DNA of 62,948 bases from Candidatus Woesearchaeota archaeon (GCA_964344975.1 CAYFPK010000004.1:1-62948); one strand, 5' to 3'; counted from the stretch's first letter, positions 2,996 to 62,489 are shown. A program made the numbers and translations. Notes: generated from the letters alone by a model not told the origin.

Positions 2996-3387
2996 TTCTT
3001 AGCAGCTTTTTTTGTAGATTTTTTAACAGTCTTCTTGGTAGTTTTTTTAGAAGAAGCCTTTTTTTCTTTAACGACATCTTTGGACTTATCTCGAGCCTTA
3101 CGCTTACGAGTAGCCCTAACACCTTTAGCTTTTTTAGTAGCTTTTTTCTTAGGTAAAACTACAGCAAACCCTTCCTTTGCAAGTGCTGCGACAACATCCT
3201 TTTGTGAAGCACCTTTTTTCACAGTAATTTTTTTAGATAAAAAAGTAATATGAGCAACATTACATTTGCGAGAACGTACAGCACAAGAAAACTCAACAAA
3301 CCCAGCATCTAAGTCAGCAACAACAACACCGATAGATCCAGCATCACGTCCAGCAATCTTCATACCCACTTGACCAACTAAACTCAT
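2992..3387 (-). CDS. rpl14e: 50S ribosomal protein L14e with lysine-rich C-terminal tail
   Basis: KOW-like N-terminus (GQVGMKIAGRDAGSIGVVV) as in L14e. Adjacent to L34e, as in many archaea. The C-terminal ~50 aa are K/A/T-rich. Confidence 0.8.
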   Translation of the reverse strand: MSLVGQVGMKIAGRDAGSIGVVVADLDAGFVEFSCAVRSRKCNVAHITFLSKKITVKKGASQKDVVAALAKEGFAVVLPKKKATKKAKGVRATRKRKARDKSKDVVKEKKASSKKTTKKTVKKSTKKAAKK

Positions 3388-3659
3388 TGCATCATCCCCC
3401 GAGCTTTATTCACCATCTCAGCACGCGTGCAAGAGGAACACAGTACACCACCATAAGGACGTTGAGGACGTTTTTTAGTTTTAGCTAAATTCTTAAACTT
3501 TGAAGAAAGTAAATGCGGAATACCAGGTAATCGAGTACCACAACCACCACAAACGTGACGTCCAGGCTTACGTAAACGATACGTACGCACAGTCTTCCCG
3601 CCGGGCGTCTTAACAAAAACACGACGTTTTGAACGCGATTTTAAGCTTCCCGCAACCAT
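3384..3659 (-). CDS. rpl34e: 50S ribosomal protein L34e
   Basis: RSKRRVFVKTPGGKTVRTYRLRKPGRHVCGGCG...CSSC, the L34e zinc-ribbon signature. Start set at the internal Met (MVAGSLKSR); the upstream 44 codons of the track ORF are hydrophobic and unlike L34e. Confidence 0.85.
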   Translation of the reverse strand: MVAGSLKSRSKRRVFVKTPGGKTVRTYRLRKPGRHVCGGCGTRLPGIPHLLSSKFKNLAKTKKRPQRPYGGVLCSSCTRAEMVNKARGMMQ

Positions 3660-3833
3660 ACGAAGAGCAAACTCAGTGCATTTATAAGCGTTGTGGCAAG
3701 AGTTTATCAAAAAAGCAAAGATCCATGTTAGAACAATAACGATAAGCCTCCTAAGGACCAAAGAAAACCATTTATAAAATATAACAACCAAAGAAGAGAA
3801 AAATACTTAAAGCTAGTATCCAAGAAAAAAGTC

Positions 3834-4754
3834 ATGCCTGACACAGAGAGAAGACTAGACCAGCAGCAACTAGAAGCGATAAATTTCTTATGGTTAGAGC
3901 TAACAAACAGCTGCAACCTCGAGTGTACGCACTGTTACTCAGATTCAAACCCAGAAAAAGCAGTTTTAGGATCAATAACAGAGCAAGATTGGATCAAAAC
4001 ACTCAAGGAGGCAGAAGAGCTAGGTTGTAGAAAGGTCCAATTCATAGGTGGCGAACCAACCATGCACCCGTCGCTAAACAGATTGATAGAAGCAGCAGAC
4101 GATTTAGGATACGAATACATTGAAGTATTTACCAACGGCTCATTACTCAATGACAGAAGATTAGACGAATTAGAAAGACACAACGTCCGGCTAGCGTTCT
4201 CTATGTATGGGTCCAATGCTCAAGTGCACGACAGCATAACAAGAAGAAAGGGAAGCTTTGAAAGAACATTCAAAGCAATTAACAATGCAACAAGAAGAGG
4301 GCTTGAAGTACGTGTTGGCATAGTAGGTATGCCCGAAAACAAAGATGATATCGAAGCAACAAAAGAACTTCTACAAAAAGCAGGAGTCGAAAAAGTCAGT
4401 GACGACTACGTCAGGGGCATTGGCAGAGGAGAAACATACATCACAGACATAGGAAACCCCAAGGATGAGCTATGTGGCTGGTGTTGGAATGCAAAACTTG
4501 TCGTTGACCCAGACGGAACAGTGTATCCGTGTGTACTCTCACGAGCCTACCCTATGGGAAATATCACAGAAGGACTTGGAGAAATTCTAAGCAGTGAAAG
4601 GCTATGGGATTTCAGACAAGAGATATTTGCAAAAAAATATGAAGGTCCCTGTGGCTCATGTGTTCCAGACAGTTGCAAGCCAGACTGTATCCCAGTAGAG
4701 GATCCTGGACCTTGCTACGCGCCCAAAAACAAAGAAGAGCAACTTCTTCACTAA
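3834..4754 (+). CDS. radical SAM enzyme with C-terminal SPASM/twitch-type auxiliary cluster domain
   Basis: CNLECTHCY (Cx3Cx2C), the GGEP motif (FIGGEPTM), then CGWCWNAKLVVDPDGTVYPC (Gx4C) and CGSCVPDSCKPDC...PC cysteine clusters. Confidence 0.85.
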   Translation: MPDTERRLDQQQLEAINFLWLELTNSCNLECTHCYSDSNPEKAVLGSITEQDWIKTLKEAEELGCRKVQFIGGEPTMHPSLNRLIEAADDLGYEYIEVFTNGSLLNDRRLDELERHNVRLAFSMYGSNAQVHDSITRRKGSFERTFKAINNATRRGLEVRVGIVGMPENKDDIEATKELLQKAGVEKVSDDYVRGIGRGETYITDIGNPKDELCGWCWNAKLVVDPDGTVYPCVLSRAYPMGNITEGLGEILSSERLWDFRQEIFAKKYEGPCGSCVPDSCKPDCIPVEDPGPCYAPKNKEEQLLH

Positions 4755-11685: not shown

Positions 11686-12398
11686 GAAGCCACCACCTGC
11701 AACGCCGGCTTTTTCTTTGCACCAACAACAAACCCATAATCAAGTAAGGTAGTTGCAGCAACACCACCAACGTCATACTTAAGCATAGCACGGCGAGCAC
11801 CAGATCGAACAACAACTTCAGTGACAACACCAACTAAACCAACACCAGACCCACCGCAAAGATACACAGCAGAACCTGGCGCAAGAGCATAATGCTCAAC
11901 AATTTTTTTAGCAGAAAAATCATACAAAACAGAGTCACCAACAGAGCCAGCAAAATCTTTAAGCAACAAGTTAGAACCATCATGGAAATTTATTTGTAAA
12001 CGCCCACCAGATAAAACCGTTTTTCCGACAACACGAAGTAAACGAAGACTTCGCTCTTTTGCAGCAACAGTAATAAGAGCTAAACGCCCTTTACGATCAT
12101 ACACCATCCGATAAGAAGCATCAAGTTTAGGCAACGTAACAACATCCATGAATCCTACAGCACTACGAACATCACAACGTACAACACCGTTAACTAAAAC
12201 ATCACCAGCATGAGCAACATACTTTGCTTCTTTAAGCGTTTTCACACAACCAATCAAGTCACGTAAAACAACACCTAAAGCAAGGCTTGATGCAAGCGAA
12301 TGTCCACTTGGATGTTGACGGACAACCCAAAAATGCGCTTTACGTCGAAGAGGCCAACTCTTCGGCGCTGATAAACGAGGCATATGATTTTGTACCAT
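11682..12398 (-). CDS. rps4e: 30S ribosomal protein S4e
   Basis: HMPRLSAPKSWPL N-terminus plus S4/KOW-like core; lies between uL24 and uL5. Confidence 0.93.
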   Translation of the reverse strand: MVQNHMPRLSAPKSWPLRRKAHFWVVRQHPSGHSLASSLALGVVLRDLIGCVKTLKEAKYVAHAGDVLVNGVVRCDVRSAVGFMDVVTLPKLDASYRMVYDRKGRLALITVAAKERSLRLLRVVGKTVLSGGRLQINFHDGSNLLLKDFAGSVGDSVLYDFSAKKIVEHYALAPGSAVYLCGGSGVGLVGVVTEVVVRSGARRAMLKYDVGGVAATTLLDYGFVVGAKKKPALQVVAS

Positions 12399-12853
12399 TA
12401 CGCTGCAGCCCCCTTTGGTTTGTTAGCAGCAGGTTTTTTAGTTGTAGTTTTTTTTGTTGCAGGCTTTGCAGGTGCAGCGCCAGTAAGCTTCGCACGACGT
12501 TTAGCATCGTCTAACTGTAACTCTAACACTTGTAAATTTGAAGCAAAGAAAGGATAGTGAGCAACACGACCGTCACGCTTTTTCACACCAACACCTTCTA
12601 TATGAATACGTCGACGCACACGGCTAACAGTAGATATAACACCAACAGTACCTTTATGCTGTCCACGAAGAATTTTAACTTTATCACCACTACGTACAGT
12701 AACACTACGACAACCGTACTTTTTACGAAGATCTTTACTAAGTGGCGCACGTAAAAGCGAACCAGCTAAATGAAGAGGAAGGTTATACACATACTTTCTC
12801 TGCTTACGCGGTTGAACACTTCCGCGCCAAGATTTAGACCAATCTGAGTTCAT
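12398..12853 (-). CDS. rpl24: 50S ribosomal protein L24 (uL24) with basic C-terminal tail
   Basis: KOW motif (VRSGDKVKILRGQHKGTVGVI). The C-terminus is AKPATKKTTTKKPAANKPK. Confidence 0.93.
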   Translation of the reverse strand: MNSDWSKSWRGSVQPRKQRKYVYNLPLHLAGSLLRAPLSKDLRKKYGCRSVTVRSGDKVKILRGQHKGTVGVISTVSRVRRRIHIEGVGVKKRDGRVAHYPFFASNLQVLELQLDDAKRRAKLTGAAPAKPATKKTTTKKPAANKPKGAAA

Positions 12854-22266: not shown

Positions 22267-23748
22267 TCAAGAGATAACAACACAACGATTATCAAAAATA
22301 TCCTTTACAAATCCAAGCTTTTTGCGCCGTTTAGCATACACGGTCAACAACACATCACCGCGACGCACTTTCTGACCAAGCTTCACATGACAATCCACGC
22401 CAGCCCCAGCATCTTTGGGCGAACCTGCCAATTTAGCATATTGTACAATTTGTTGCATGTTAATCGAAGAAACTTTTCCGGATCGCCTAGCAACAACATC
22501 CCAGGTACAAGAACCGTAAGGTAACGTATACGGCGTAACATTAGGGTTACCTCCTTGCGCAGCAACTATTTGACGAAACTTGGCATAGGCAGCTCCAGAA
22601 TCAAGAGCACCAGTTACTAACTTTTTAGCATGTTTACGTCCAGTCATAGCAACTATTTTTTCCGCCATAGCAAGACTTTTAGCACGCAAATCAGCAGGAC
22701 CGTTCCCCTGCAACACAAGCAACACGTCCCGCGCTTCAAGCACAGGACCGATACCATGACCGATCGGTTGGCGCCCGTCAGAGACCATAATAGCAACTTT
22801 TATTTTCATTTTTTTACCTAAACGCACAAACAATTTTCCGAGACGATCCGCTGCTTTTCTACTTTTTATTTTAGCCTGACGTCCAACAGGAATATCTACA
22901 AGCACATGCGTAGAACCGACAGCCGCTTTTTTTGCCATGATACTCGCAAGCAAAATACCTTCAGGATCTAAAGATAAAGGTCTCTCTAATTTAATAAGCA
23001 AATCATCAGCTGAAGCAAGACCCAAAGCACCACCCCACACCATACACCCACCGGTTGCAACAACGATACGTTTTATGGTAGCAACATCATGCGCGACAGG
23101 ACAAAACACTTCAACAGTATCAGCAGTTCCCGCGGGTGAAGTAATAGAACGCGTACTCGTTTTAGGGATAGTTAGCCCTAAAGAAGCTAGAATAGCAACA
23201 ACAATAGGCGTAGTTCTGTTTCCCGCAACACCACCCACACAATGTTTGTCAACAACAATACGTTTTGTAAGATGTAGCTGTTGCGCACAACTAACAATAG
23301 CTTGCGCAAGATAAGCACTCTCATCAAGCGTCATACCGTTGGTATAACAACCAGCAATGAAATAGGAAGCCTCAACTTCAGCAAGTTCATTGGCAACCAA
23401 GTCACGAACAATGGTAAAAAGTTTTGCTTTGCTCAACGTTTTCCCATCTAACTTTTCTTTTATATATTGTAAGGAGAGTGGTTTATCTTCAAGTAACACC
23501 GAAGTCATACTTTTGTTAGCAACACCAAACTTACAAACAACTTCTAAAAAAAGACCAACTTCACCGGGACGCACAGGCGAATGTGCACCCCGCATAACAT
23601 CAACAACAACAATTTGAGAACGTCGCCCTGACTGTAAGCGTACCCGTTGCAAAGCACCGACACCTAACTGTAAAGCATCCTGTTCATGTAAAGCAACAAT
23701 CAAAGGGCCCCCCGTAGAGATATGTAAATACTTAACGCGTAACTTCAT
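22267..23748 (-). CDS. deoA: AMP phosphorylase (archaeal thymidine-phosphorylase-family DeoA)
   Basis: ~490 aa with the extra N-terminal domain (MKLRVKYLHISTGGPLIVALHEQDA) characteristic of archaeal AMPpase. Glycosyl transferase family 3 core (DKHCVGGVAGNRTT) and pyrimidine-nucleoside-phosphorylase C-terminus. Confidence 0.85.
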   Translation of the reverse strand: MKLRVKYLHISTGGPLIVALHEQDALQLGVGALQRVRLQSGRRSQIVVVDVMRGAHSPVRPGEVGLFLEVVCKFGVANKSMTSVLLEDKPLSLQYIKEKLDGKTLSKAKLFTIVRDLVANELAEVEASYFIAGCYTNGMTLDESAYLAQAIVSCAQQLHLTKRIVVDKHCVGGVAGNRTTPIVVAILASLGLTIPKTSTRSITSPAGTADTVEVFCPVAHDVATIKRIVVATGGCMVWGGALGLASADDLLIKLERPLSLDPEGILLASIMAKKAAVGSTHVLVDIPVGRQAKIKSRKAADRLGKLFVRLGKKMKIKVAIMVSDGRQPIGHGIGPVLEARDVLLVLQGNGPADLRAKSLAMAEKIVAMTGRKHAKKLVTGALDSGAAYAKFRQIVAAQGGNPNVTPYTLPYGSCTWDVVARRSGKVSSINMQQIVQYAKLAGSPKDAGAGVDCHVKLGQKVRRGDVLLTVYAKRRKKLGFVKDIFDNRCVVIS

Positions 23749-24731
23749 TTCCTAACATACTTCTTGTAAAACATCTGCCCTAACACCACTGCAGACGAAA
23801 GCACAATCGGCCCCACAATAACACCAACAAAGCCAAAGACCTGCAAACCACCTAAGATACCAAGTAAAGCAACAACAGGGTGTAACTTGGTACGGTCTCC
23901 AATAACCTTTTGACGAATAACTCCATCAATAAGACCACTGATGATAAGACCAACAATTAAAACGCCGACAGCTTGCGTAGGCATTCCTTGAAAATGATAG
24001 ATTAAAGCAAGAGGCACCCAAACAACAGCAGGACCAACAAGTGGAAGTAGTGCTAAAAAACCAATAGCTAAAGCCCAGATAAACGGCGCACGAATACCAA
24101 GTAACCAGAACGCTGCAGCAGAAAATACCAATTCAAGTAAAGCAACGGTAAAAAATCCATAGGTAACACCATACACCATATCTCCTAAATGTGAAAAAAC
24201 GGCCTTTTTATTTTCAAGAGGTAAATCTTTTTCCAAACCAGAAATAATCTTCTCCCCCTGCAAGAACAAAAAAAACAAAGTATATATCGTAATCAAAAAG
24301 TTAAGAATCATGCCAGGGACACTGACAAAAAACGAAGATGCCGCATTACCTATAGCAGCAACAACACGAGAAACACCAGCTTCAATAAAATCACTTACAG
24401 CAGAGTCCCCAACAAAAGTGGAAAGTTGTTCACTTACAGAACCTAAAGCACCAGAAGAGTACAAAGAAAGAGACTCTTGAATAATCATATTAGTAAAAAA
24501 AGCAAAGGGAAGAAGAACTAATAGGGTAACGAGAATACACATTAAAAGCGAGGCAAAAAAGGGACTACGCGTATACCGTGCAAGCTTCTTATAGATGGGA
24601 TAAAACATGTACGCTAAGATACAGGATGCTAGAAGAGCCGTGATATAAGGCCAGACTAAAAAGATAGAAAGGATAAACAAAAACAGCACAAGACCCAGCA
24701 AAAAATACTTACGAAACTCTGTGATACGCAT
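23745..24731 (-). CDS. AI-2E/PerM (UPF0118) family transporter-like membrane protein
   Basis: 8-TM topology with the conserved C-terminal region (LPLVGPAVVWVP...GDRTKLHPVVALLGILGG..FG..G...GP). Confidence 0.8.
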   Translation of the reverse strand: MRITEFRKYFLLGLVLFLFILSIFLVWPYITALLASCILAYMFYPIYKKLARYTRSPFFASLLMCILVTLLVLLPFAFFTNMIIQESLSLYSSGALGSVSEQLSTFVGDSAVSDFIEAGVSRVVAAIGNAASSFFVSVPGMILNFLITIYTLFFLFLQGEKIISGLEKDLPLENKKAVFSHLGDMVYGVTYGFFTVALLELVFSAAAFWLLGIRAPFIWALAIGFLALLPLVGPAVVWVPLALIYHFQGMPTQAVGVLIVGLIISGLIDGVIRQKVIGDRTKLHPVVALLGILGGLQVFGFVGVIVGPIVLSSAVVLGQMFYKKYVRK

Positions 24732-24752
24732 AAACAGGTTTTGTCAAAGAGT

Positions 24753-24765
24753 ATATTTAAAGCTT
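24753..24765 (-). promoter_or_regulatory. BRE/TATA promoter (AAGCTTTAAATATA on minus strand) of the AI-2E gene; duplicated at 25830-25842
   Basis: The TATA 3' edge lies ~22 nt upstream of the ATG at 24731, implying a leaderless mRNA. It is copied by the tandem duplication. Confidence 0.55.
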
Positions 24766-25737
24766 ATGGAGAATCTTTATGTAGAAGTAAAGCTCAAAAA
24801 AGAGATGACTGACGAACCTTTTGCAATAGATAACAAAACGACCAAATTCTTAGAGATGCTCAAACAACAAAGCAGCACAAATCCCGCAGCAAGAGAGTTA
24901 TGGCAACGATGCCTTGAACGCCCGTCTGTATTTAGAACTGTAAGTCTTCCAGAAGTAGAAAAAGGCGTAAACGTTGAAGAGGGCAGAAGGTACAGGTTAG
25001 AAAAAATAACAGACCTACACAAAGAAGCACAAGAGTATTACAAAAATGCACTAGGCATAGATCTAGAACTAGAAAGAAAAAGAGAAAGACATCTATTAAC
25101 AGTAGCAGCATCAAGAAGAACAATTGCAGATGAACTAAAAGCAAAAGTATTTGCAAGACAGGGACTGCCAGAGATCCACAAAGCAGCAAAAGAATTATTG
25201 TCAGAACAGCAAGTAGAAGATCTCGATCCAGAACTGCAAGCATTATTTAAAAAAAGAAAAGAACCACTAAGATTAGAAGGAAGAAGATATCTAGCCAGAT
25301 GGACAATCAGACTCCAATATAGAATGCAGGTGGTAGGTTCAGGGTGGTATACTGATTTTGATCCAAATGATTGCATAGCAGAAAGAGCAAGAGAATACAA
25401 AACATGGACAGGGGAGTGTACAATCGTTGATAAACTTAAACCTGAAGTGATAACATTTAGGTTTAGGGCAAAGGATTATGACCCAACATGCAACAAAGAT
25501 AAAGAACAATTTTTTGCAGAAACATTTGGCATCGCCGCAAGAGATTTAAGAGACGCAACGCCTTCTGCAGACAGGATTCTTGAAAGATGTTGGCAAGAGT
25601 ACACAGCACTTTTAGAAACCTACGGTGGCACGTGTGGGCCAGACATTAAACTGCCAGAAGAAGTAGATTTAAGTTATTGTAACATCCAAACAAGAACCGA
25701 CAAAGGTGGACAAGGGTTACTTTTCAAAACTGGCTAA
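24766..25737 (+). CDS. orphan hypothetical protein, copy 1 (323 aa from first ATG)
   Basis: Long ORF with no recognisable motifs. Charged N-terminal half, Cys/Trp-containing C-terminal half. The track ORF starts at the GTG at 24721. Confidence 0.6.
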   Translation: MENLYVEVKLKKEMTDEPFAIDNKTTKFLEMLKQQSSTNPAARELWQRCLERPSVFRTVSLPEVEKGVNVEEGRRYRLEKITDLHKEAQEYYKNALGIDLELERKRERHLLTVAASRRTIADELKAKVFARQGLPEIHKAAKELLSEQQVEDLDPELQALFKKRKEPLRLEGRRYLARWTIRLQYRMQVVGSGWYTDFDPNDCIAERAREYKTWTGECTIVDKLKPEVITFRFRAKDYDPTCNKDKEQFFAETFGIAARDLRDATPSADRILERCWQEYTALLETYGGTCGPDIKLPEEVDLSYCNIQTRTDKGGQGLLFKTG

Positions 25738-25842
25738 AGAAGCGTCTTCAATAAGTAACGTAGCACAAGACCCAGCAAAAAATACTTACGAAACTCTGTG
25801 ATACGCATAAACAGGTTTTGTCAAAGAGTATATTTAAAGCTT

Positions 25843-26814
25843 ATGGAGAATCTTTATGTAGAAGTAAAGCTCAAAAAAGAGATGACTGACGAACCTTTTG
25901 CAATAGATAACAAAACGACCAAATTCTTAGAGATGCTCAAACAACAAAGCAGCACAAATCCCGCAGCAAGAGAGTTATGGCAACGATGCCTTGAACGCCC
26001 GTCTGTATTTAGAACTGTAAGTCTTCCAGAAGTAGAAAAAGGCGTAAACGTTGAAGAGGGCAGAAGGTACAGGTTAGAAAAAATAACAGACCTACACAAA
26101 GAAGCACAAGAGTATTACAAAAATGCACTAGGCATAGATCTAGAACTAGAAAGAAAAAGAGAAAGACATCTATTAACAGTAGCAGCATCAAGAAGAACAA
26201 TTGCAGATGAACTAAAAGCAAAAGTATTTGCAAGACAGGGACTGCCAGAGATCCACAAAGCAGCAAAAGAATTATTGTCAGAACAGCAAGTAGAAGATCT
26301 CGATCCAGAACTGCAAGCATTATTTAAAAAAAGAAAAGAACCACTAAGATTAGAAGGAAGAAGATATCTAGCCAGATGGACAATCAGACTCCAATATAGA
26401 ATGCAGGTGGTAGGTTCAGGGTGGTATACTGATTTTGATCCAAATGATTGCATAGCAGAAAGAGCAAGAGAATACAAAACATGGACAGGGGAGTGTACAA
26501 TCGTTGATAAACTTAAACCTGAAGTGATAACATTTAGGTTTAGGGCAAAGGATTATGACCCAACATGCAACAAAGATAAAGAACAATTTTTTGCAGAAAC
26601 ATTTGGCATCGCCGCAAGAGATTTAAGAGACGCAACGCCTTCTGCAGACAGGATTCTTGAAAGATGTTGGCAAGAGTACACAGCACTTTTAGAAACCTAC
26701 GGTGGCACGTGTGGGCCAGACATTAAACTGCCAGAAGAAGTAGATTTAAGTTATTGTAACATCCAAACAAGAACCGACAAAGGTGGACAAGGGTTACTTT
26801 TCAAAACTGGCTAA
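25843..26814 (+). CDS. orphan hypothetical protein, copy 2 (identical to copy 1)
   Basis: Its translation is identical to that of 24766..25737. Confidence 0.6.
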   Translation: MENLYVEVKLKKEMTDEPFAIDNKTTKFLEMLKQQSSTNPAARELWQRCLERPSVFRTVSLPEVEKGVNVEEGRRYRLEKITDLHKEAQEYYKNALGIDLELERKRERHLLTVAASRRTIADELKAKVFARQGLPEIHKAAKELLSEQQVEDLDPELQALFKKRKEPLRLEGRRYLARWTIRLQYRMQVVGSGWYTDFDPNDCIAERAREYKTWTGECTIVDKLKPEVITFRFRAKDYDPTCNKDKEQFFAETFGIAARDLRDATPSADRILERCWQEYTALLETYGGTCGPDIKLPEEVDLSYCNIQTRTDKGGQGLLFKTG

Positions 26815-38161: not shown

Positions 38162-38350
38162 ATGAAAAAGGAAGAAATACGAATCTATTGGGACGAACAA
38201 GGAGATTATCTTGAGATAAACTTTGGAGAACCTGTAGAATCATACTGGGAAGAGATTGGTGAAGACATATTTATGTGTAGAAGCGAGAAAACAGAAGAGG
38301 TTAAAGGATACGGAATATTCTTTGCAACAGATAGAGAAATTTCTTCTTAA
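38162..38350 (+). CDS. DUF2283-like protein, copy 2 (tandem paralogue)
   Basis: The N-terminal stretch I compared (about 70 nt) is roughly 85% identical at nucleotide level to copy 1. Same motif set. Confidence 0.6.
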   Translation: MKKEEIRIYWDEQGDYLEINFGEPVESYWEEIGEDIFMCRSEKTEEVKGYGIFFATDREISS

Positions 38351-39630
38351 ACAGGCCGAGTCGAACCCCATTTCTTAAGAGCAGTAGCAAGCTCAACATG
38401 ATCTTTTGAATACTTTTTCAAAGAAACACCTTGCATGGCAGCATCAATAGACTGTCGAAGAGCACGAGCCCCAGCAAGAGACCCGGAAGGATGCCCGTGT
38501 ATACCACCACCAAGTTGAATACAAATATCGTTTCCAAGCGTTTTCATAACCTGCGGAACTAAACCAACATGCAGCCCACCAGACGAAGTAGCCAGCACAG
38601 GCTTAACAGACCCCCACTTTTCTCCAAGCAAATGACCAGAAGGAGAAATCAACTGTTTTTCCACCTCTTCACCGATGTGAGTGACCTCAGCTTTCGAACC
38701 AACCAATTTACCAATAACCGTACCGATGTGCAAATTATCAACACCGACAAGACGACAACACTTAGCAAGTGCAAGCATACTCATACCGTGTAAAGGGTTA
38801 CGATCAAACGCCGCGTGAAAAGCACGGTGACCATGGATAGCTAACTTATAATCAGAACAAATCTCACGTACCGTTTGCAAGCCGGCCCAACCAACAGTAC
38901 ACACATCCACCATGACATACTCACCGCCATGTTTAGCAACAAACTTTGCACGTTTCTCCATAGTCCTAGTGTCAGCAGAAATATTAATAAAATAACTTTT
39001 ACGTTCTCCAGTAATCTTTTCAGCTTTATCACGTAACTTCAAACAAGTTTTCACACGAGGCTCAAACTTGTTAAAAACCTGACTGGTTAGATTCTCATCA
39101 TCTTTACCAAAATCAACACCACCCAGCCAAGAGTTAAACAACACATCACTATGCTCTTTAGTGGTCATGCCGACTTTAGGTTTAGGCACAGTTGCAGTCA
39201 TAGGACGTTTACGTACTTTCATAAAACGACGAACACCACGCACACCAAACTGTGGACCTAAAAACGAACGGAACATATAACGAGGAAAATAAATATCTTC
39301 TAAACGCAAATTTTTCACCGCCTTCATACCAAAAATATTTCCTGCAAATGAAGAAAGCAACTGCGGCATGTTCCCAGCTTCAAACAACGGTTTGGGATAC
39401 GCAATTTTGAGATACTCCCCCTTAATAGAAAAACACCGTCCACGAATGGCGCGAATGTGCGGCTTCAACGTAGTCAACGTAGTCCACGTCCCGTTAGACG
39501 ACTCCGACGCCACACGTCCAGCAGCTTCTTTGACAGAAACACCTTTTGCAGGCTGCATACGAAAACTACAAATCAAATCAGACGATGACGGCTTGTACGA
39601 CAGATCAACAAAATCAAGATATTGAGACAT
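38347..39630 (-). CDS. rbcL: ribulose-1,5-bisphosphate carboxylase/oxygenase large subunit, form III-like
   Basis: GGVDFGKDDENL (carbamyl-Lys motif), HGHRAFHAA and GGGIHGHPSG. No small-subunit gene. Neighbours the R15P isomerase. Confidence 0.92.
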   Translation of the reverse strand: MSQYLDFVDLSYKPSSSDLICSFRMQPAKGVSVKEAAGRVASESSNGTWTTLTTLKPHIRAIRGRCFSIKGEYLKIAYPKPLFEAGNMPQLLSSFAGNIFGMKAVKNLRLEDIYFPRYMFRSFLGPQFGVRGVRRFMKVRKRPMTATVPKPKVGMTTKEHSDVLFNSWLGGVDFGKDDENLTSQVFNKFEPRVKTCLKLRDKAEKITGERKSYFINISADTRTMEKRAKFVAKHGGEYVMVDVCTVGWAGLQTVREICSDYKLAIHGHRAFHAAFDRNPLHGMSMLALAKCCRLVGVDNLHIGTVIGKLVGSKAEVTHIGEEVEKQLISPSGHLLGEKWGSVKPVLATSSGGLHVGLVPQVMKTLGNDICIQLGGGIHGHPSGSLAGARALRQSIDAAMQGVSLKKYSKDHVELATALKKWGSTRPV

Positions 39631-54909: not shown

Positions 54910-55548
54910 ATGAGATACAGTATACTTTTAGTCTTACTCTTAACCATTCCACTAAGTACAGCAGCAACCATCCAAGGAACAGTCTATGATCTGAGTTTAG
55001 AGCCGCAAACTAATGTTATTGTAGAAATTGACTCAACACCCTTGCAACGCCAAGTGATTAAAGAAGGCACATATGAGTTTACTTTAAGCCCAGGAAGCTA
55101 TACGTTAAGTGTTAAAAGTAACCAAGATGAAACACTCATAGAAGAAAGCATTGAGATTACGCACGATGGCGACTACACCGTTGACTTATTTACCTTATTA
55201 GATTTAAGCGAGTTTGAAGAGTTCGTAGAAGAATCACAAACAGAGCTAGATCTCAATGGTGAAACACCAACATACGTTGTTTGGATCATAGGTGCAGCAG
55301 TAATTGTAGGTGTGATTCTTTTTTTCAAAAGAAAAAAAATAGAGCCAGAAACAAAAAAGCAAGACCCACTAGCAGAAAAAATAATAAAAATTCTAAAAGA
55401 AAACGATGGACGCATGACACAAAAGGAGTTAAGAAAACATTTTCCTTTTTCTGAAGCAAAAATGTCGTTGGCAATTACAGAGTTAGAAGCAAACAAAAAA
55501 ATAAAGAAAATAAAAAAAGGTCGAGGAAATATAATTTCACTCAGCTAA
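54910..55548 (+). CDS. membrane-bound regulator-like protein: signal peptide, carboxypeptidase-regulatory-like beta domain, TM helix, cytoplasmic winged-HTH
   Basis: IQGTVYDLSLEP...GTYEFTLSPGSYTLSV (CarboxypepD_reg-like). TM helix VVWIIGAAVIVGVILFF. C-terminal KILKENDGRMTQKELRKHFPFSEAKMSLAITELEANKKI (MarR/wHTH-like). Confidence 0.65.
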   Translation: MRYSILLVLLLTIPLSTAATIQGTVYDLSLEPQTNVIVEIDSTPLQRQVIKEGTYEFTLSPGSYTLSVKSNQDETLIEESIEITHDGDYTVDLFTLLDLSEFEEFVEESQTELDLNGETPTYVVWIIGAAVIVGVILFFKRKKIEPETKKQDPLAEKIIKILKENDGRMTQKELRKHFPFSEAKMSLAITELEANKKIKKIKKGRGNIISLS

Positions 55549-56145
55549 AGAAGCAACTAACTCTTCTAAAGCAGCAAGTTCATCACCATAACCCATGCGA
55601 ACTTTCACAGCATGATACCCGCCATGATGTCGATACAAGCAGGTACGTAGACCAGAAGGAATTTCTTTTCCTTTCGGAAAACGCCCTAGCAAAGAAATAA
55701 TATTATGCATGGCAGGCTCAACATGAGCCCAATCTTTCCAAAACCCATTTGGTTTTTTACCAGAGGTATAACCCATTTGTTCACGAATAGTAACAAGACC
55801 ACCATGATAATCATAAATTGCCTTATAGAGAGAAGGATTAAATTGGCGAACTTCAACAGCGGTAGGAAAAGAATCTTGACTATCAACTAAAGGCTGTAAT
55901 TCAAAAAACACATTACCAACATCCAACCAATACCCAGAAGGTTTATGAGGTGAAGCAACGCCATAACATTTTCGAACAGCAACCATACCGCCAGGAAACG
56001 CAGAGATTGCATCTTTAAGCGGACGTGAAAGTTTGGAAAGCTCAAAAGAAGAAGGAAAATGACCCAACTCTTCAACAATAGGGTCAAGTCTAGCTACAAG
56101 AGATTCCCACTCATCTAAAGACGCATGCGCTTTCCTATCCATCAC
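55537..56145 (-). CDS. repeat protein C (202 aa): three type-2 repeats plus conserved C-terminal DELAALEELVASL peptide
   Basis: Repeat unit KP.GYW.DW..VE......LGRFP...E....L..A...HGG...V...MGY occurs three times. 4-nt overlap with the upstream gene. Confidence 0.75.
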   Translation of the reverse strand: MMDRKAHASLDEWESLVARLDPIVEELGHFPSSFELSKLSRPLKDAISAFPGGMVAVRKCYGVASPHKPSGYWLDVGNVFFELQPLVDSQDSFPTAVEVRQFNPSLYKAIYDYHGGLVTIREQMGYTSGKKPNGFWKDWAHVEPAMHNIISLLGRFPKGKEIPSGLRTCLYRHHGGYHAVKVRMGYGDELAALEELVASLAE

Positions 56146-57038
56146 CCAAGCACCTCAACCAATTCTTCTAAAGCGGCAAGCTCATCAGAGTAGCCCATGC
56201 GAGCTTTCACAGCAACAAGACCACCGTGATACTTAAAGAGAGCCTGTTGTAATCCATAATCCAATTCTTTCAACTGATTTGTTGTAGGAAAAACACCACC
56301 ACACTGATCAATAATTTCTTTCAAAGCTACCTCAACATGCGCAAAATCGCGCAAAAAACCGTTAGGACGAGAACGTTTTTTTTTCGGAGAGGGAAGAACA
56401 GCATCAACCCAACCATTCCTTCTAAGAAGTTTCATAAAACCACTATCCAAAGAACCGACCTCACCACGACTTTTGCCATCGAGACGCAGAAAGTAATATC
56501 TTTGAGCATCTTCTAAAGTAAAATGAGTGAATCGTTGTTGGCTAGGGGGAAAGACTTCATCAAGAAGTTTTCGGGCCCGAACAGCTTTATAAAAACTACG
56601 TCCATCTGGACCATCCTCTTTCACCTGGCCCCTACTAAGGCCAAAAAAATGTTCCTTACAATATGCCTGAAACATATCAACATCCCAATCAACCCAACGG
56701 TGACGAGTTTCAGGAATAGCCTCCTCAAGTAAACCCCTTCTTTTCAAAACATGATAAAGCTGAGATCCTCCATGAATCTTGTCATACTGCAATTGTCCTC
56801 TTGACAGATGCGAAAAATGCTCAGCATAATGAGTAACTAACTCTTCATCTGTAAATTTTCGCCACTCAACTCCTTTTTTACTTAAAGGTAAAACTGCATC
56901 AGTAAGATCTCTTACAGTAACAGCACGGTAGAATGCACAATCAGCTTCACCAATTTCACTACGACTCATACCAGCAAAATGTTCTGCACAATATTTTTGA
57001 AAATCTTCAACAGTACTCAATCCTCGCCAAGGTTTCAT
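56142..57038 (-). CDS. repeat protein B (298 aa): four type-1 repeats, one type-2 repeat, C-terminal DELAALEELVEVL peptide
   Basis: Type-1 unit W..FT.EDF..YY.EHF.G.SR..V.KD..DG..FY.AV..R.LLDEV.P. Its start overlaps the stop of the upstream gene by 1 nt. Confidence 0.75.
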   Translation of the reverse strand: MKPWRGLSTVEDFQKYCAEHFAGMSRSEIGEADCAFYRAVTVRDLTDAVLPLSKKGVEWRKFTDEELVTHYAEHFSHLSRGQLQYDKIHGGSQLYHVLKRRGLLEEAIPETRHRWVDWDVDMFQAYCKEHFFGLSRGQVKEDGPDGRSFYKAVRARKLLDEVFPPSQQRFTHFTLEDAQRYYFLRLDGKSRGEVGSLDSGFMKLLRRNGWVDAVLPSPKKKRSRPNGFLRDFAHVEVALKEIIDQCGGVFPTTNQLKELDYGLQQALFKYHGGLVAVKARMGYSDELAALEELVEVLG

Positions 57039-58489
57039 TACACAAGCACCTCAACCAATTCTTCAAGAGCTGCAAGTTCATTAGAGACATAACCCATACG
57101 AGCTTTTACACCAATAAGGCCATCATGATGCACAAGAGCAGAAGCAAGGTAACCGGGAAGTTCACGCTTCAAAGGAAATCGTCCAAGCTTACTTATCTCA
57201 GCTTGCATGGCCGGCTCAAGATTATCCCATTCCTTCCAATAACCACTCGGTTTTTGAGAAGCAGAATCAGCATACCCCATATGAGCCTTCACCGCATAAT
57301 ACCCACCGTGACGAGAAAGAGATGAGGCAAGAGAGCTAGAAAAGGCAGCAATTTCACGACTTTTAGGAAACCTACCAAGTTCGAAAACCAAAGGTTCAAT
57401 TTCAGAAACAACATTCTCACGGTCATCCCAATAACCATTGGGCCTACGTAAAGACTCTGGAAAGACTTCATCGGTGAATCCACGAGCAGCAACAGCACGA
57501 TAGAAGGATCTTCCATGAGGAGCATCTTTCTGTACACGAGTACGATGCCATCCAGCAAAATGATCCCCATAATAATTTTTAAAATCTTGCAGAGTAAACT
57601 CATTCCAACTATGTTGAGAGTTAGGCGCAAAGACATCTGCAGAAGAAAAGCCAGCCTTACGCAGAGCCAAATAAAAGGCATTACCACTTTCTAATTGCAT
57701 AACTTGATAAGCGCACAAACCACTATAATATTCTTCATAATACGCCTGAAAATTTTCAAGAGTAAAATCTGAAAACTGGCCCCTCGTTCCTAAAGGAATA
57801 ACAGCATCAAGAAGATTAAGATCAAAAAGTCGTTCATAAAACGCGCGACCATCAGGTGCCTTCTTAACACGAGTTCTATTCATACCAGAAAAATGTGTTT
57901 GATAGTGTTGTTTAAAATCCTCAACAGTAAAGCCATCAAAATCAATTTCACGCTGCAAACGAGTATCACGAGGAGGAAAAATAACACTAATAAGATCACG
58001 ACGAACTAACGCCTTAAAAAAGGCATAACCTCCTGGAACCTCTTTGACTTGAGCAACGGTCATTCCAGAAAAACGTTCCTCATAATAAGAATGAAAGTCT
58101 TCTTCGGTAAAAGAAGACCAACGAACACGCTGAGGTGATGGAAGAACTTCATCTTTGAGCCCTAATCGAGCAACGGTTGAGTAGAAAGCAGAACCAAGCC
58201 CATCAACATCCTTTTGCAGCTCAGTACGACTCATTCCAGCAAGATGTTCTTCGTAGAACTGCTTAAATTCAGCAACACCAAAACCATCCCAGTTGTGATA
58301 ACGACAAGCAGGAAAGATTTCATCAACAAGACCTCGGACACGAACTTCATTATAGAACGTAGAACCTGCTTTCGCTCTATCTTTTTGCACACGAGCACGA
58401 TTCCAACCAGCAAAATGTTCGCCATAATATTCTCTTAAATCTTCATCAGAGAGATTCTTCCAAAATCCATCAGGTCTTCTACCCATCAC
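57038..58489 (-). CDS. repeat protein A (483 aa): six type-1 repeats, two type-2 repeats, C-terminal ELAALEELVEVL peptide
   Basis: Internal periodicity of ~57 aa is visible directly in the translation. 11-nt overlap with the 3' end of the SNF2 gene. Confidence 0.75.
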   Translation of the reverse strand: MMGRRPDGFWKNLSDEDLREYYGEHFAGWNRARVQKDRAKAGSTFYNEVRVRGLVDEIFPACRYHNWDGFGVAEFKQFYEEHLAGMSRTELQKDVDGLGSAFYSTVARLGLKDEVLPSPQRVRWSSFTEEDFHSYYEERFSGMTVAQVKEVPGGYAFFKALVRRDLISVIFPPRDTRLQREIDFDGFTVEDFKQHYQTHFSGMNRTRVKKAPDGRAFYERLFDLNLLDAVIPLGTRGQFSDFTLENFQAYYEEYYSGLCAYQVMQLESGNAFYLALRKAGFSSADVFAPNSQHSWNEFTLQDFKNYYGDHFAGWHRTRVQKDAPHGRSFYRAVAARGFTDEVFPESLRRPNGYWDDRENVVSEIEPLVFELGRFPKSREIAAFSSSLASSLSRHGGYYAVKAHMGYADSASQKPSGYWKEWDNLEPAMQAEISKLGRFPLKRELPGYLASALVHHDGLIGVKARMGYVSNELAALEELVEVLV

Positions 58490-61400
58490 TCAACACCAAC
58501 CCTGATCGCGGATCAATACGCAACCGTCGAGAGCCTGTATAGACTTTTCGAGGAACACGAGCAGAAGAACCAGAAACGCTCGATGCACGAGCAGGAGTAT
58601 AACCAGCGTCAGAAACAGCTTCAGGTAAAGTAGCTGCAGAAGACATTAAAGAAACAACTTCAGAAGGCTCATCCACAGGAGCAACTAAAGCAAAGTAATC
58701 AGCATCAACAGCAGCAACAGCAGAAACTTTTTCAAACAAAGAAAAGGTAGAATGCTCAAGTTTACTCCGGTACGCTTCAGCATGATGTTGACCAGCAGAC
58801 GCCTTCAAACGAGAAAAAAAATCCTTAGAAACGGCATAACGATGCGATTTAACAAGAGGAGTAAATCCAGATTTTTTCATACCATCAAAAAAAGAGCTAG
58901 AAAAACGCCAACCGCCAAGACCAAGTTGCAAATACCCACCAACATCTAAAACTGCATTTGCACCAACAACATAATCACGTACACGTTCTTTATTCTCAAG
59001 CAAACTCACAGATGAGTTATCAACAAAATCAAAAGTACGACCACCAACAACAGACACATCACACATATCACCAACATACTTTAGAGGGTTAGAACTGCGT
59101 GCAGACATCGCTAAAGAAAAGTCACGGTCAACAACCTCAGGAACAGCAAAACCACAATCACGCACAAGAGTGTCTAAATCTAAAAACGCATCATACAAGA
59201 TACCGGGACCTGCCGCATCAGCTAAAACAGTTGCAGGAAAAGTAATCTCTCCTACACGTGCACGTTTCACTAAATCAACAACCTTAGCACGAGCAAGAAC
59301 ATATGGGCTCAAAGAAGAAAAATGTGCACAATAAAGCGCAACAAATTCTTCATCATGCCAAATACCTATAGGGTCTTGCATAATACGTGCACGCAACTCT
59401 TGCGCAACAGTTTGCTCATAAGCATCGGAGGAAATAACAGTAGAACTTCCTTTTTTACGAGTAACAACTCGTTTAGTAACAAAATCATCTAAAGAGTTCA
59501 CAGAAGAATCCGAAAGATCCACAGAAACACCACCACGCCCACGCAAAAACAATTCTTTTAATCGCAACGAGTCCCCGTCACCAGAGATAAGTTTTCGCTC
59601 TTCATCCAAAAGAGCAATACCATCAAGAGCCATCTGATTTTTTTCAGCTTTTTGCGCACGCAAAGAATCAACAGCATAATCAATAGAATCAGCACCATAC
59701 AATAACCGAACGGTAGTTTTCTTTTTTTGACCACGCCGAGCTAAACGAGCAATAGCTTGCTCACGCACAGCAGGACTGTAATGATCATCTAAAAGGTACG
59801 CAGCATTAGCAGCTGAAAAATTTAAAGAAACACCACCAGCACGTGTAGAAACAACAACACCGTCAAGACCGTTTGCTAAACGTTCACCGATTTTGTCACG
59901 AGTAGCATCAGAAGTAGTTCCATCAACAGAAGTCAAATTAAACGATCGACCAAACTGTGCAGATAAAACATCTGCAAGCTCTTCATGCAAAGGACGTAGA
60001 TTTAAAGAAGCAAACGCATCAGATAAACCAAGCTCCTCATATTGTCTACGTAACTGTCGAGCAGCAGCGGTAACATGTTTGGCAAACATGGTTGAAAACA
60101 CAACAAACTTATCACCGCAAGCAACAGGTCCATCATCTGCAGTTAACAATTGATCTAATCGCACATACTTCGCAGAATCAGAGCGAGAAACAGCACCAAC
60201 TAAATCCAGATCAGATAAGATACGAGGATGTACCAACCGCGGATCAAGTACAGCATACCGCATTTGTGTTAACCAGTTAGGTTGACCAGTTTCAAACACA
60301 TAATCAACAATGCGTTGTTGCACCTCAGTTAATGCAACATCATCAATAAGAACCTCTAAAGGAGGCAAATCCATAACATCACAACTGCGACGTCGAATAG
60401 TTCTTTGTCGAACAAACGTATACAAGGAACGCGGATCCCCCTCATAAATCTCTAAAAAGCGAGAAGCAACAGCATCATAATCTAAAAAAGAATGTCCATC
60501 TTCCTCTTGTACAAAATGATCAGGGTGTAACATAAAAAACAATGAAGCATAATCTTTTAACGTATCAGGCATGGGCGTACCGGTAAGCTCAGTCAAGTAC
60601 CCAAGGTCAGGACGAGTCGCAAGAAGTTTAACCGCTGAAGCAACAGTAACAGCACCCTTTTTTGTACGTGTACGCGTATTACGCACATCTTGCACTTCAT
60701 CAATAATAAGATGATCATAACCCAAATCAAGCAACACTTCATACACCTGCTTATCACCAAAGTCAAGTGTTAGCTGATCAAAGTTAGCAAAAACAAAGTC
60801 AGCACCACGCATCTCAGCAAGAAAAGCCGCATCTTTATCTCCATTCACCCAAGCAACAGATTGCACATCAGCAAAGTAACGTGTATCAGAAGGGCCACAA
60901 AGACCATCTCGCCAAGCCTTAACAGAAGCCTTAGGACCCAAAACCAACGTACGACCATACACACCTTTACCTTCGCTTCGCAACTTAGCCTCAATAAGCG
61001 GCTTTAGCAAAGGGGCAATAGCGGTTTTGCCCGTACCACATTCATCAAAGACACCAAAGCGACCTTCTTCCAGGTTATGGAACTGGGCAACGGCCTGATG
61101 AAACGAAGGAAGCACAACAGCCTCACCAGTTGCAGGATCTACAAAGTCAGGGTTTATATGCCCAAGAGAAATCATACGTTCACGAAACGAAAGATAAGAT
61201 CTAAAGGTTGCAAGTTGATCTTCATATAAGTAACGCAAGTTCTCATGCGTTTGCAAAGCAACAAGCTTCTCAAGCTCAGGCAAAGCATCCATAGGATCCT
61301 CTCGCAAATTAAAGATATTGAAAAAATCACGGCGCGCCTTCTCACGAAGAATTAAAAACAAACGACGCGCATCAGCATAAGATGCTTTTTCTTCATCAGA

Positions 61401-61982
61401 AAGTTCATCTTCATTTTTTGCCAAAACAGAAAAATGTCCTGCAGGTAATTCTTGCAACATACGCACATACACAGGAGAAACTTCACCAACAACACGATCT
61501 TCTTTTTCAGAAGATGAACGTTTAGCAGATCGTTTTTCAGAAAAGATAGATTGACTCACACGATATAAATTATCAAAAGTACCAACAAGAGCACGAACCT
61601 CCTCACGAACCTCAGGGATATTCAAAACAAAAGCAGCATACAAATCAGCATCAGTTTCTGTATCAAGCACATCTAAAACAGAAGCATAATCTTGTGAATC
61701 AGAATCTTTTGTACGAGCAAGAATGGTTTCTAACCCTTGACGCGCCTGCACCAAATTAGCTTCAGATAAAAACCAATAGCCATCACGTTGCGCACGGGCA
61801 ACAAAAGATGTATAATGATCATCTTCACCCTTATGTTGCTGATAGAGATGAGCTACAGCCTGCGCTAAAGTTTCTTTACCTTGCGCTGTAAGCATACGTC
61901 GAAGATTAGCAATAGTCACAGCATCATACTTCCCACTAGCAACAAGCGTGGCCAATGCAGATTCGACAGGATCCTTTACCAT
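58479..61982 (-). CDS. SNF2-family helicase/translocase with ~300-aa unique N-terminal region and C-terminal Rossmann SAM-methyltransferase-like domain (1167 aa)
   Basis: SNF2 motifs: LPSFHQ (Q), DECGTGKT (I), LVLGPKASVKAW (Ia), LIIDEVQDVRN (II), LTGTPMPDTLKDYASLFFML (III), KFVVFSTM (IV) and STRAGGVSLNFSAANAAYLLDDHYSPAVREQAIARLARRGQ (V-VI). The C-terminal part has VLADAAGPGIL (motif I-like), VVDRDFS, YVGDMCDV, FDFVDNSS and VLDVGGYLQL. Confidence 0.85.
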   Translation of the reverse strand: MVKDPVESALATLVASGKYDAVTIANLRRMLTAQGKETLAQAVAHLYQQHKGEDDHYTSFVARAQRDGYWFLSEANLVQARQGLETILARTKDSDSQDYASVLDVLDTETDADLYAAFVLNIPEVREEVRALVGTFDNLYRVSQSIFSEKRSAKRSSSEKEDRVVGEVSPVYVRMLQELPAGHFSVLAKNEDELSDEEKASYADARRLFLILREKARRDFFNIFNLREDPMDALPELEKLVALQTHENLRYLYEDQLATFRSYLSFRERMISLGHINPDFVDPATGEAVVLPSFHQAVAQFHNLEEGRFGVFDECGTGKTAIAPLLKPLIEAKLRSEGKGVYGRTLVLGPKASVKAWRDGLCGPSDTRYFADVQSVAWVNGDKDAAFLAEMRGADFVFANFDQLTLDFGDKQVYEVLLDLGYDHLIIDEVQDVRNTRTRTKKGAVTVASAVKLLATRPDLGYLTELTGTPMPDTLKDYASLFFMLHPDHFVQEEDGHSFLDYDAVASRFLEIYEGDPRSLYTFVRQRTIRRRSCDVMDLPPLEVLIDDVALTEVQQRIVDYVFETGQPNWLTQMRYAVLDPRLVHPRILSDLDLVGAVSRSDSAKYVRLDQLLTADDGPVACGDKFVVFSTMFAKHVTAAARQLRRQYEELGLSDAFASLNLRPLHEELADVLSAQFGRSFNLTSVDGTTSDATRDKIGERLANGLDGVVVSTRAGGVSLNFSAANAAYLLDDHYSPAVREQAIARLARRGQKKKTTVRLLYGADSIDYAVDSLRAQKAEKNQMALDGIALLDEERKLISGDGDSLRLKELFLRGRGGVSVDLSDSSVNSLDDFVTKRVVTRKKGSSTVISSDAYEQTVAQELRARIMQDPIGIWHDEEFVALYCAHFSSLSPYVLARAKVVDLVKRARVGEITFPATVLADAAGPGILYDAFLDLDTLVRDCGFAVPEVVDRDFSLAMSARSSNPLKYVGDMCDVSVVGGRTFDFVDNSSVSLLENKERVRDYVVGANAVLDVGGYLQLGLGGWRFSSSFFDGMKKSGFTPLVKSHRYAVSKDFFSRLKASAGQHHAEAYRSKLEHSTFSLFEKVSAVAAVDADYFALVAPVDEPSEVVSLMSSAATLPEAVSDAGYTPARASSVSGSSARVPRKVYTGSRRLRIDPRSGLVLSDG

Positions 61983-61994
61983 ACATAATTCCTA

Positions 61995-62489
61995 TCACCT
62001 CTTGTTTTTGGGAATATAAAAATAACCAACACAATTATTTGGAGTAGACTTCTTTCTTTGTACAACTAAACTAGGATGTACAGGGTTACCATCTAAAGCA
62101 AGAGCACCACCAGCAATTAGGTCATGCCCATCAAAAGAAGCATCAATTTGCAAAGCTTTCGCTAAATTCCCTGGCCCCTGTGCAGTAACAGGCCTATCTT
62201 CAAAAACATAATCAGCAGCAACCAAAGTAACACAACTAGAAACACCACAACTAATGTCAATAAGATAATTACCACGACGGTTACTAACAGAAACAATACC
62301 AGGCCCGTAATCAACAAACTTACCAGAACCTCCCTCCCAGGCAGAAATTTCAACAAGTGTTCCGGTTACAACAGGACCAGCAGAAAATGTCCGAATAAGT
62401 TGCCGTCCAAGCAAATATGCAGCAACAGTGGCAGCATCCTGCCTAAAGAAATCATGCGAAAGGTTCGTTTCAAGGGTTAAAGCAGTCAT
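61995..62489 (-). CDS. DNA-3-methyladenine glycosylase (Mpg/AAG family)-like, short divergent form
   Basis: FFRQDAATVAAYLLGRQLIR, TGTLVEISAWEG (compare ETEAY, with the catalytic Glu kept) and QGPGNLAKALQIDASFDGHDL match the Mpg family order. The central region is shorter than usual. Confidence 0.55.
   Translation of the reverse strand: MTALTLETNLSHDFFRQDAATVAAYLLGRQLIRTFSAGPVVTGTLVEISAWEGGSGKFVDYGPGIVSVSNRRGNYLIDISCGVSSCVTLVAADYVFEDRPVTAQGPGNLAKALQIDASFDGHDLIAGGALALDGNPVHPSLVVQRKKSTPNNCVGYFYIPKNKR

Follow-up and report, generated by a model that had tools for sequence, protein, structure and literature searches.

The DNA analysed here is a 62,948-nucleotide stretch from a Candidatus Woesearchaeota archaeon (GCA_964344975.1, CAYFPK010000004.1:1-62948), referred to as the window. 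The subject is a cluster of minus-strand genes in it, of which three, A, B and C, code for paralogous proteins built of short repeats and sharing a terminal peptide. The first gene of the cluster (61995-62489) codes for a 164-aa AAG/MPG-like (Pur_DNA_glyco) protein and is followed by the gene of a 1167-aa SNF2-family ATPase (58479-61982), which also has a methyltransferase-like domain and will be called SNF2-methyltransferase. A, B and C are placed downstream of these two genes: A at 57038-58489 (483 aa from a GTG, 482 aa from the ATG at 58486), B at 56142-57038 (298 aa) and C at 55537-56145 (202 aa, or 201 aa from the ATG at 56142). C is the final gene of the cluster, with nothing downstream of it. 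Starts and stops overlap by 1 nt at the A/B and B/C junctions and by 8-11 nt at the SNF2/A junction, which indicates that the genes form an operon. All coordinates given below for this operon refer to the minus strand. The archaeal origin of the window is evident from its genes for archaeal L3, L4 and S3, type III RuBisCO and an AMP-phosphorylase-like protein.

Repeat units of proteins A, B and C

In the original prediction, made from the sequence alone, A, B and C were described as three paralogues built of two types of ~57-aa repeats, with 6+2, 4+1 and 0+3 units of type-1 and type-2, respectively. Exactly these numbers were obtained by alignment and with hidden Markov models (HMMs) derived from the window units. 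By HMM, the six type-1 units of A occupy 57446-58468 (58298-58468, 58127-58297, 57962-58126, 57782-57946, 57614-57781 and 57446-57613, with domain E values of 1e-23 to 1e-27), and they are followed by two type-2 units spanning 57086-57448 (57269-57448 and 57086-57256) and by the terminal peptide. B consists of four type-1 units (56874-57035, 56703-56870, 56535-56702 and 56379-56537) and one type-2 unit (56190-56372), C of three type-2 units (55954-56136, 55765-55947 and 55576-55758). The type-2 units are 57-61 aa long and are arranged head to tail, in one to three copies per window protein and in up to 12 copies in relatives. Identity to the reference unit varies between 26 and 48% across the units, and no tandem repeat could be detected in A, B and C at the DNA level, suggesting that the duplications are old. 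The HMMs found no further copies of either type in the 62.9-kb window, and they matched two type-1 and 17 type-2 units on an independent contig (L001) with E values between 1e-13 and 1e-21. The repeats are thus supported far beyond chance.

The original prediction had also pointed to a likeness between the type-2 unit and the repeats associated with homing endonucleases. Compared with the Pfam model of these repeats (PF18780, HNH_repeat; gathering threshold 26 bits), the window proteins themselves remained below threshold: C scored 14.5 bits (E 0.047), A and B did not match, and the type-2 consensus scored 18.6 bits. Relatives composed of the same units passed the cut-off (79.2 bits for a 753-aa paralogue on L001, 59.9 bits for an 876-aa orthologue at locus L011 and 30.5 bits for protein P0004), and on the strength of these profile scores the type-2 unit is assigned to HNH_repeat as a divergent member, at the level of family membership. 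The assignment agrees with the order of the motifs (W ... LGRFP ... HGG ... G[YF], as in HNH_repeat), with the tandem layout and with the length of ~55-60 aa, the tandem unit of the family being ~54 aa and those of the window 57-61 aa. For the family itself neither a structure nor a tested function was found on record. The arrays described here differ from HNH_repeat in that they are free-standing, are joined with type-1 units, share a terminal peptide and belong to an SNF2-methyltransferase operon; no nuclease domain was detected by Pfam, NCBIfam or PHROGs in A, B, C or the other adaptor-type repeat proteins scanned.

The type-1 unit was matched by no model of Pfam, NCBIfam, PADLOC or PHROGs. 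A search of 1.8 billion proteins with a profile made of the ten window units retrieved 490 representative proteins, 201 of which had E<=1e-10, and as judged from these searches type-1 is a new, previously unmodelled repeat family. Two of the proteins with such units are unusual fusions: in P0043 type-1-like units are joined to a complete sigma-70 (regions 2-4), and in P0015, labelled as coming from a candidate division WOR-3 bacterium, six type-1 units are joined to a Methyltransf_25 domain. These fusions indicate that the type-1 module is not restricted to DPANN archaea or to the SNF2 operon.

Structure prediction with AlphaFold2 (AF2) gave four helices for one type-1 unit, with a predicted local distance difference test score (pLDDT) of 88. 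For protein B, modelled with a pseudo-alignment, the mean pLDDT was 78 and the predicted template modelling score (pTM) only 0.42. The model suggests confidently folded small helical domains whose mutual arrangement is uncertain, and the low pTM favours beads on a string rather than a solenoid. In the AF2 models the order of helices is common to both repeat types (long helix, loop, short helix, helix, short helix), and when deep profiles were compared by hhalign, type-1 and type-2 gave a weak match in register (Prob 43%, E 2.5e-4). With shallow alignments hhalign found no similarity between the two types, and a common ancestry is therefore possible but unproven. Sequence-profile searches with both repeat types against PDB sequences yielded no match, and a word-indexed homologue search returned four matches with A, none with the unit alignment and four with the full-length alignment.

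The terminal peptide and its DNA

As claimed in the original prediction, A, B and C share a C-terminal ending: the tails, ELAALEELVEVLV in A (57041-57079), DELAALEELVEVLG in B (56145-56186) and DELAALEELVASLAE in C (55540-55584), have ELAALEELV near the C-terminus, with a deviating end (VASLAE) in C. At the other loci described below the peptide takes the form of a ~10-residue amphipathic sequence, ΦxxΦΦxxΦΦ, after which G, D or E often comes next. Of 31 repeat proteins, 29 have it among their last 25 residues, as opposed to 3 of 63 other open reading frames (ORFs), and the two repeat proteins without it were cut by contig ends. The tail is conserved in orthologues, contrary to the condition set for refuting the original prediction. 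The peptide is near-uniform within a genome and differs between genomes, so the description of the tail as invariant has to be confined to single genomes. The window has LEELVEVL, L019 LKQIVEE(A/Y), L021 LLESIVGDL, the loci L006 and L008-L013 a LENLLEEYVGG-type peptide and L024 VDGVLDALDSFGD. The tails are rich in Glu. When metagenome contigs were scanned with the tail alignment, the only match was a false positive on a high-GC contig with an ABC transporter.

The C-terminal location ascribed to the peptide applies to part of the loci. It is exclusively C-terminal in the window, L006 and L019. All eight proteins of L022 have it at the N-terminus only (MSIDDIIKGIVE...), all eight proteins of L021 have it at both ends, and copies at both ends were also found in P0002 and in several proteins of L011, L012 and L013. 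The nine ELAALEELV codons of A, B and C show only synonymous differences, which indicates that selection acts on the peptide. In the AF2 model of B the tail is predicted to be helical with a pLDDT of 48-60, suggesting that it is not packed on the last repeat. Taken together, these are the features to be expected of a short docking or recruitment peptide.

The similarity of the three genes at their 3' ends, which had been noticed before at the DNA level, amounts to 73% mean column identity in an alignment of six tails, and to 78-83% identity between window and L001 tails. Part of it is accounted for by an embedded Shine-Dalgarno element, which does not account for the peptide itself. The last tail codons of A and B (V-E-V) contain the Shine-Dalgarno-like sequence GAGGTG, at 57047-57052 in A, 8 nt before the ATG of B, and at 56151-56156 in B, 8 nt before the ATG of C. 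The tail of C has no GAGGTG and deviates exactly at this position. The same dual coding, with GGAGG within Y-V-G-G-E, was seen at most internal junctions of L011, L012 and L013.

Variation at the tail DNA became apparent by comparison with L001, a contig of a sister strain from the same study as the window. Identity between the two is 91-94% over the flanking gene and the end of C, and L001 has two extra genes between its C-like gene and the flank, one coding for the 753-aa protein with 12 type-2 units and the other for P0002, with two type-1 and four type-2 units. The window C matches the C-like gene of L001 up to the tail and from there the 3' end of P0002, which places the junction of gene gain or loss inside the tail-coding repeat and shows that the tail DNA is also a substrate for unequal recombination. 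Both the window-type and the L001-type variant occur in one sample. The repeat content is hence variable, with co-occurring strains differing by two repeat genes.

Conservation and enzymes of the operon

Orthologues of the SNF2-methyltransferase were found in metagenome-assembled genomes (MAGs) of Woesearchaeota, Pacearchaeota and Nanoarchaeota, and further loci were reached through the contigs of repeat-protein matches. In all 12 of the 12 other loci with sufficient flanking sequence, tail-bearing repeat genes lie downstream of the SNF2-methyltransferase gene, at some loci upstream of it as well, and this kept neighbourhood bears out the suggested link of the repeat proteins to the SNF2 gene. 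The number of tail-bearing repeat proteins per SNF2-methyltransferase gene ranges from 2 to 9 or more (three in L006, at least one in L007, two in L008, at least two in L009, two in L010, six in L011, at least six in L012, seven in L013, eight each in L019, L021 and L022, and at least nine in L024). As in the window, the unit orders of L019 are mixed: 11222, 2222, 1222 and 112222 in four proteins and 11112, 1112222, 111222 and 11111112 in the other four, where the digits denote the unit type. These observations define a conserved and apparently undescribed operon of DPANN archaea. In the literature covered, on HNH_repeat, on SNF2, methyltransferase and glycosylase proteins of DPANN archaea and on Pur_DNA_glyco in connection with SNF2, no description of such a system was found.

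Other loci contain, besides type-1 and type-2, a third repeat type and genuine helix-turn-helix (HTH) repeats. Sister proteins with the same terminal peptide have bona fide HTH domains (HTH_28, 54 bits), and the HTH repeats match DNA-binding parts of phage HNH endonucleases (PHROG 8446, E 2.5e-43). The repeat proteins of other loci are basic, with a median isoelectric point (pI) of 9.6.

The product of 58479-61982 is, as judged from its motifs, an SNF2-family ATPase with intact motifs I, II, III and VI (GTGKT at 61023-61037, DEVQ at 60690-60701, TGTP at 60573-60584 and RGQ at 59727-59735). Its scores with the Pfam models SNF2-rel_dom and Helicase_C, 40.9 and 33.9 bits, respectively, exceed the cut-offs. 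The ATPase is preceded by a ~300-aa N-terminal region of no recognised family and followed by a C-terminal class-I methyltransferase-like domain (58683-59435, about residues 850-1100). The motifs of this domain are DAAGPG (59202-59219, a degenerate motif I), DRDFS (59115-59129) and FVDNSS (59010-59027). The window domain itself gave no Pfam match. A profile of seven orthologous domains matched PDB entry 2ZFU (E 2.5e-5; listed as 'Cerebral protein 1'), which we take to be the human RRP8/NML class-I methyltransferase. Motif I is closer to canonical in the orthologues ([DE]GSGPS), and the domain at the same position in the SNF2 protein of L024 scored 46 bits with Methyltransf_11 (cut-off 21.2) and 40.2 bits with Methyltransf_25. 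The SNF2 orthologues, from seven DPANN MAGs, are 34-47% identical. A scan of viral contigs revealed no relative of the SNF2 protein, and a genome scan with the single SNF2 protein as query gave no match. It was also considered that the N-terminus of the SNF2 protein (MVKDPVESALATLVASG) might bear the same terminal peptide, and this was rejected, the orthologues of L008-L013 being without that peptide.

The AAG-like protein scored 39.2 bits with the Pfam model PF02245 Pur_DNA_glyco (cut-off 27), and a profile of its family matched human AAG with an E value of 1.5e-14. Glu125 of human AAG (ETE*AY), the catalytic general base of that enzyme, aligns to S, A or R in all seven orthologues: to Ser in the window (LVEISAWEG) and to Ala or Arg in the other six. 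Two residues upstream of this position the AAG-like family has an invariant Glu. Instead of acting as a standard glycosylase, the protein may read modified bases. In L006, L007, L008, L009, L011 and L013 the AAG-like gene is a neighbour of either the SNF2 gene or the array of repeat genes. That an Rrp8-like methyltransferase occurs together with an AAG homologue altered at the catalytic position hints at an unusual base modification. Directly beside the operon of L019 there is a gene for Endonuclease V (11922-12563, minus strand; 179.5 bits), which is, like AAG, an enzyme for deaminated or modified purines.

A few loci deserve separate mention. L024 (8182-21032; GCA_964647855.1), from a different archaeal genome, has a distantly related version of the system, with at least eight type-1-like proteins that all end in AVDGVLDALDSFGDxK. 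L009 (CAYILI010000058.1) is titled as an uncultured Gammaproteobacteria MAG and yet has the same archaeal-type operon, with the AAG-like gene, the SNF2-methyltransferase and repeat genes with tails; the contig has probably been mis-binned. On the contig of P0014 and P0022 (JGI sample 3300072015) two tail-bearing repeat genes and a Pur_DNA_glyco homologue adjoin genes for a C5 DNA methylase and for type IV secretion system (T4SS)-like proteins (TrbC/T4SS_pilin, TraC-like), and at least one copy of the system may thus reside on or beside a conjugative element. In L012 a 214-aa ORF (3366-4010) between the SNF2 and the repeat genes has an HxD...H-like pattern and a DIOX_N match with E 0.057; its identity as a 2OG-Fe(II) dioxygenase was not confirmed by a PDB sequence search. 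Homologous Ser/Leu/Asn-rich putative ORFs of ~250 aa, with overlapping starts and stops and no family match, lie inside the operons of L010 (2101-2868) and L012 (10092-10835).

A putative adaptor set and its alternatives

We propose, with a probability of roughly 0.5, that A, B and C are interchangeable DNA-targeting adaptors, which would dock through the terminal helix on a common receptor, most likely the SNF2-methyltransferase. They would be members of a variable adaptor set in an operon led by the fusion of an SNF2 translocase with a class-I methyltransferase-like domain; the operon usually codes for the AAG-like, putatively base-flipping protein as well. Each adaptor would be a string of independent ~57-residue four-helix modules. 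That such strings bind DNA is suggested by their HNH_repeat and HTH relatives, by the basic pI of the proteins elsewhere and by the SNF2 context. The acidic amphipathic helix of ~10 residues, at one or both ends, would plug every paralogue into the same receptor, so that one motor and enzyme could be directed to several different targets, and the repertoire of targets would be altered by gain, loss and shuffling of adaptor genes.

Several observations weigh against this proposal. The A, B and C proteins of the window have near-neutral pI values (6.1-7.7). No significant structural neighbour was found by Foldseek, the best E values being 1.2 for the model of B against the PDB, 3.9 for a single type-1 unit against the PDB and 0.025 for B against viral models, in the last case with phage proteins that are uncharacterised or annotated as endonucleases. 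The motif (D/N/S)PP(Y/F/W) of DNA amino-methyltransferases is absent in all eight orthologues with an extractable domain, where the stretch matching the position of motif IV reads (F/V)DN(S/E/A)S. Taking into account also that the enzyme appears to be of the Methyltransf_11/25, Rrp8-like type, its substrate may not be DNA. The N-terminal region of the SNF2 protein is not conserved between sub-lineages, and the last residues of the tail are constrained by the embedded ribosome-binding site as well.

The presence of the peptide at both ends of some proteins suits oligomerisation at least as well as docking. If the peptide were an oligomerisation element, the paralogues could pair N-terminal with C-terminal ends and coat or bridge the DNA, forming a chromatin-like scaffold remodelled by the SNF2 protein. 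This would fit with the many members that have the peptide at both ends (all eight of L021, several of L011-L013, and P0002), with its uniformity within a genome and with the predicted co-expression of up to eight or more paralogues from one operon. A helix of 9-12 residues would, however, probably be too short to form a stable coiled coil alone, and head-to-tail pairing cannot be general when the peptide is only C-terminal in the window, L019 and L006 and only N-terminal in L022; we regard oligomerisation as unlikely. Less probable still is that the methyltransferase uses the repeat proteins as substrates or is regulated by them, with the Glu-rich peptide serving as a docking or modification site of the enzyme, in the way that the CheR methyltransferase docks on the C-terminal NWETF pentapeptide of chemoreceptors. 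The small-molecule, protein or RNA type of the methyltransferase, which is not that of a typical DNA methyltransferase, the Glu content of the tails and the bacterial P0015 fusion speak for such a role. It would leave the SNF2 translocase, the AAG-like protein, the homing-endonuclease-type modules and the HTH domains unexplained, and homology between the methyltransferase of P0015 and the domain of the window SNF2 protein could not be shown.

DPANN archaea are episymbionts, and the peptide might be a targeting or export signal that directs a variable repertoire of DNA-binding effectors to some compartment or into the symbiont's host cell. Its independence of position, the lineage-specific and strain-variable gene repertoires and the T4SS-like genes adjoining one locus are compatible with this, but the strict linkage in 12 of 12 loci is to the SNF2-methyltransferase gene and not to a secretion or shell gene, and no transporter is conserved in the neighbourhood, which makes export a distinctly poor candidate. 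The explanation to which we give the least credit is that the tail has no function as a peptide and is a by-product of the ribosome-binding site and of gene conversion or unequal recombination. It draws on the GAGGTG or GGAGG sequences in the last tail codons, a few nucleotides before the next start at most internal junctions, on the deviation of the last gene, C, exactly at that site, and on the recombination junction inside the tail DNA. Against it, none of the differences among the ELAALEELV codons of A, B and C changes an amino acid, last genes retain the core motif although no partner follows them, and the peptide is conserved between lineages with no more than 27-35% identity in their SNF2 proteins. 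Moreover, the same peptide occurs at N-termini (in L022 only there), free of such a constraint, and provided that the called starts are correct, these N-terminal copies essentially exclude a purely DNA-level origin.

The putative adaptors can be compared with several known systems. In type I restriction-modification (R-M) systems HsdS is likewise a separate variable recognition subunit, whose repertoire changes by recombination between conserved segments. The likeness is conceptual; there is no sequence relationship, and Pfam and NCBIfam revealed no Methylase_S-type domains in A, B and C. The adaptors would consist of small helical repeats, number 2 to 9 or more per enzyme and presumably be attached by a short terminal helix, whereas HsdS is attached by coiled-coil conserved regions. 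A, B and C adjoin an SNF2-methyltransferase fusion and an AAG-like gene, not hsdM and hsdR; the motor is of SNF2 rather than HsdR type, the methyltransferase is not of the N6-adenine type and no nuclease was found. SNF2-family ATPases occur likewise in variable multigene loci as DrmD of DISARM, ZorD of Zorya, BrxH of BREX and DpdE of Dpd, some of them with methyltransferases, but none of these systems has arrays of tail-tagged repeat proteins. In PADLOC the SNF2 protein gave only a ~100-residue match to the generic helicase C lobe (best E 1e-12), which indicates that the operon is none of these four systems; no PADLOC model matched A, B, C or the glycosylase-like protein, and no partner genes of the four systems were found.

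Short amphipathic peptides that are placed at either terminus and recruit varied proteins to one partner are known from the encapsulation peptides of bacterial microcompartments and from CheR-NWETF. The peptide described here is alike in form only and is independent of position; at the examined loci the SNF2-methyltransferase gene has no conserved neighbours coding for shell proteins or chemoreceptors, and no shell genes were noticed in the gene tables of these loci. TALE, PPR and PUF proteins resemble the repeat proteins in having tandem helical repeats in variable number and, presumably, in reading nucleic acid. The ~57-aa units are larger, are 26-48% identical and are predicted to be separate domains (pTM 0.42) and not a continuous solenoid, and no code of one unit for one base is evident in them.

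That the tiny genomes of DPANN archaea retain up to nine or more paralogous repeat proteins per SNF2-methyltransferase, and that these vary between co-occurring strains, suggests an important function under diversifying pressure, for example in defence, in the interaction with the host or in marking the genome. Should the terminal helix prove to be a universal plug for interchangeable DNA-recognition modules, a single ATP-driven enzyme would be provided with many specificities in a novel manner, HNH_repeat and its new sister repeat would gain a first functional context, and a simple, transferable tag-receptor pair would become available along with a collection of small natural modules that bind DNA. 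A more speculative extension of the adaptor proposal, which we put forward tentatively and which may well go too far, is a DPANN-wide multi-adaptor machine: a strain-variable set of 2 to 9 or more plug-in proteins, composed of homing-endonuclease-type helical modules for DNA recognition, would programme an SNF2 translocase fused to an Rrp8-like methyltransferase, their terminal helix of ~10 residues, independent of position, would co-evolve with the receptor, and the AAG-like protein, without the canonical catalytic Glu, would read or remove the mark, making up a new programmable system for DNA marking, defence or chromatin targeting in these ultra-small archaea. There is a substantial chance that the system is a programmable one of a categorically new kind.

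Elsewhere in the window, the AMP-phosphorylase-like gene and the type III RuBisCO gene lie at 22267-23748 and 38347-39630, respectively, a nucleotide-salvage pair consistent with a DPANN-type archaeon. Between them, two 338-aa ORFs (24721-25737 and 25798-26814), 100% identical and without a Pfam family, are arranged as a direct tandem with a period of 1077 bp, reflecting either a very recent duplication or an assembly artefact.

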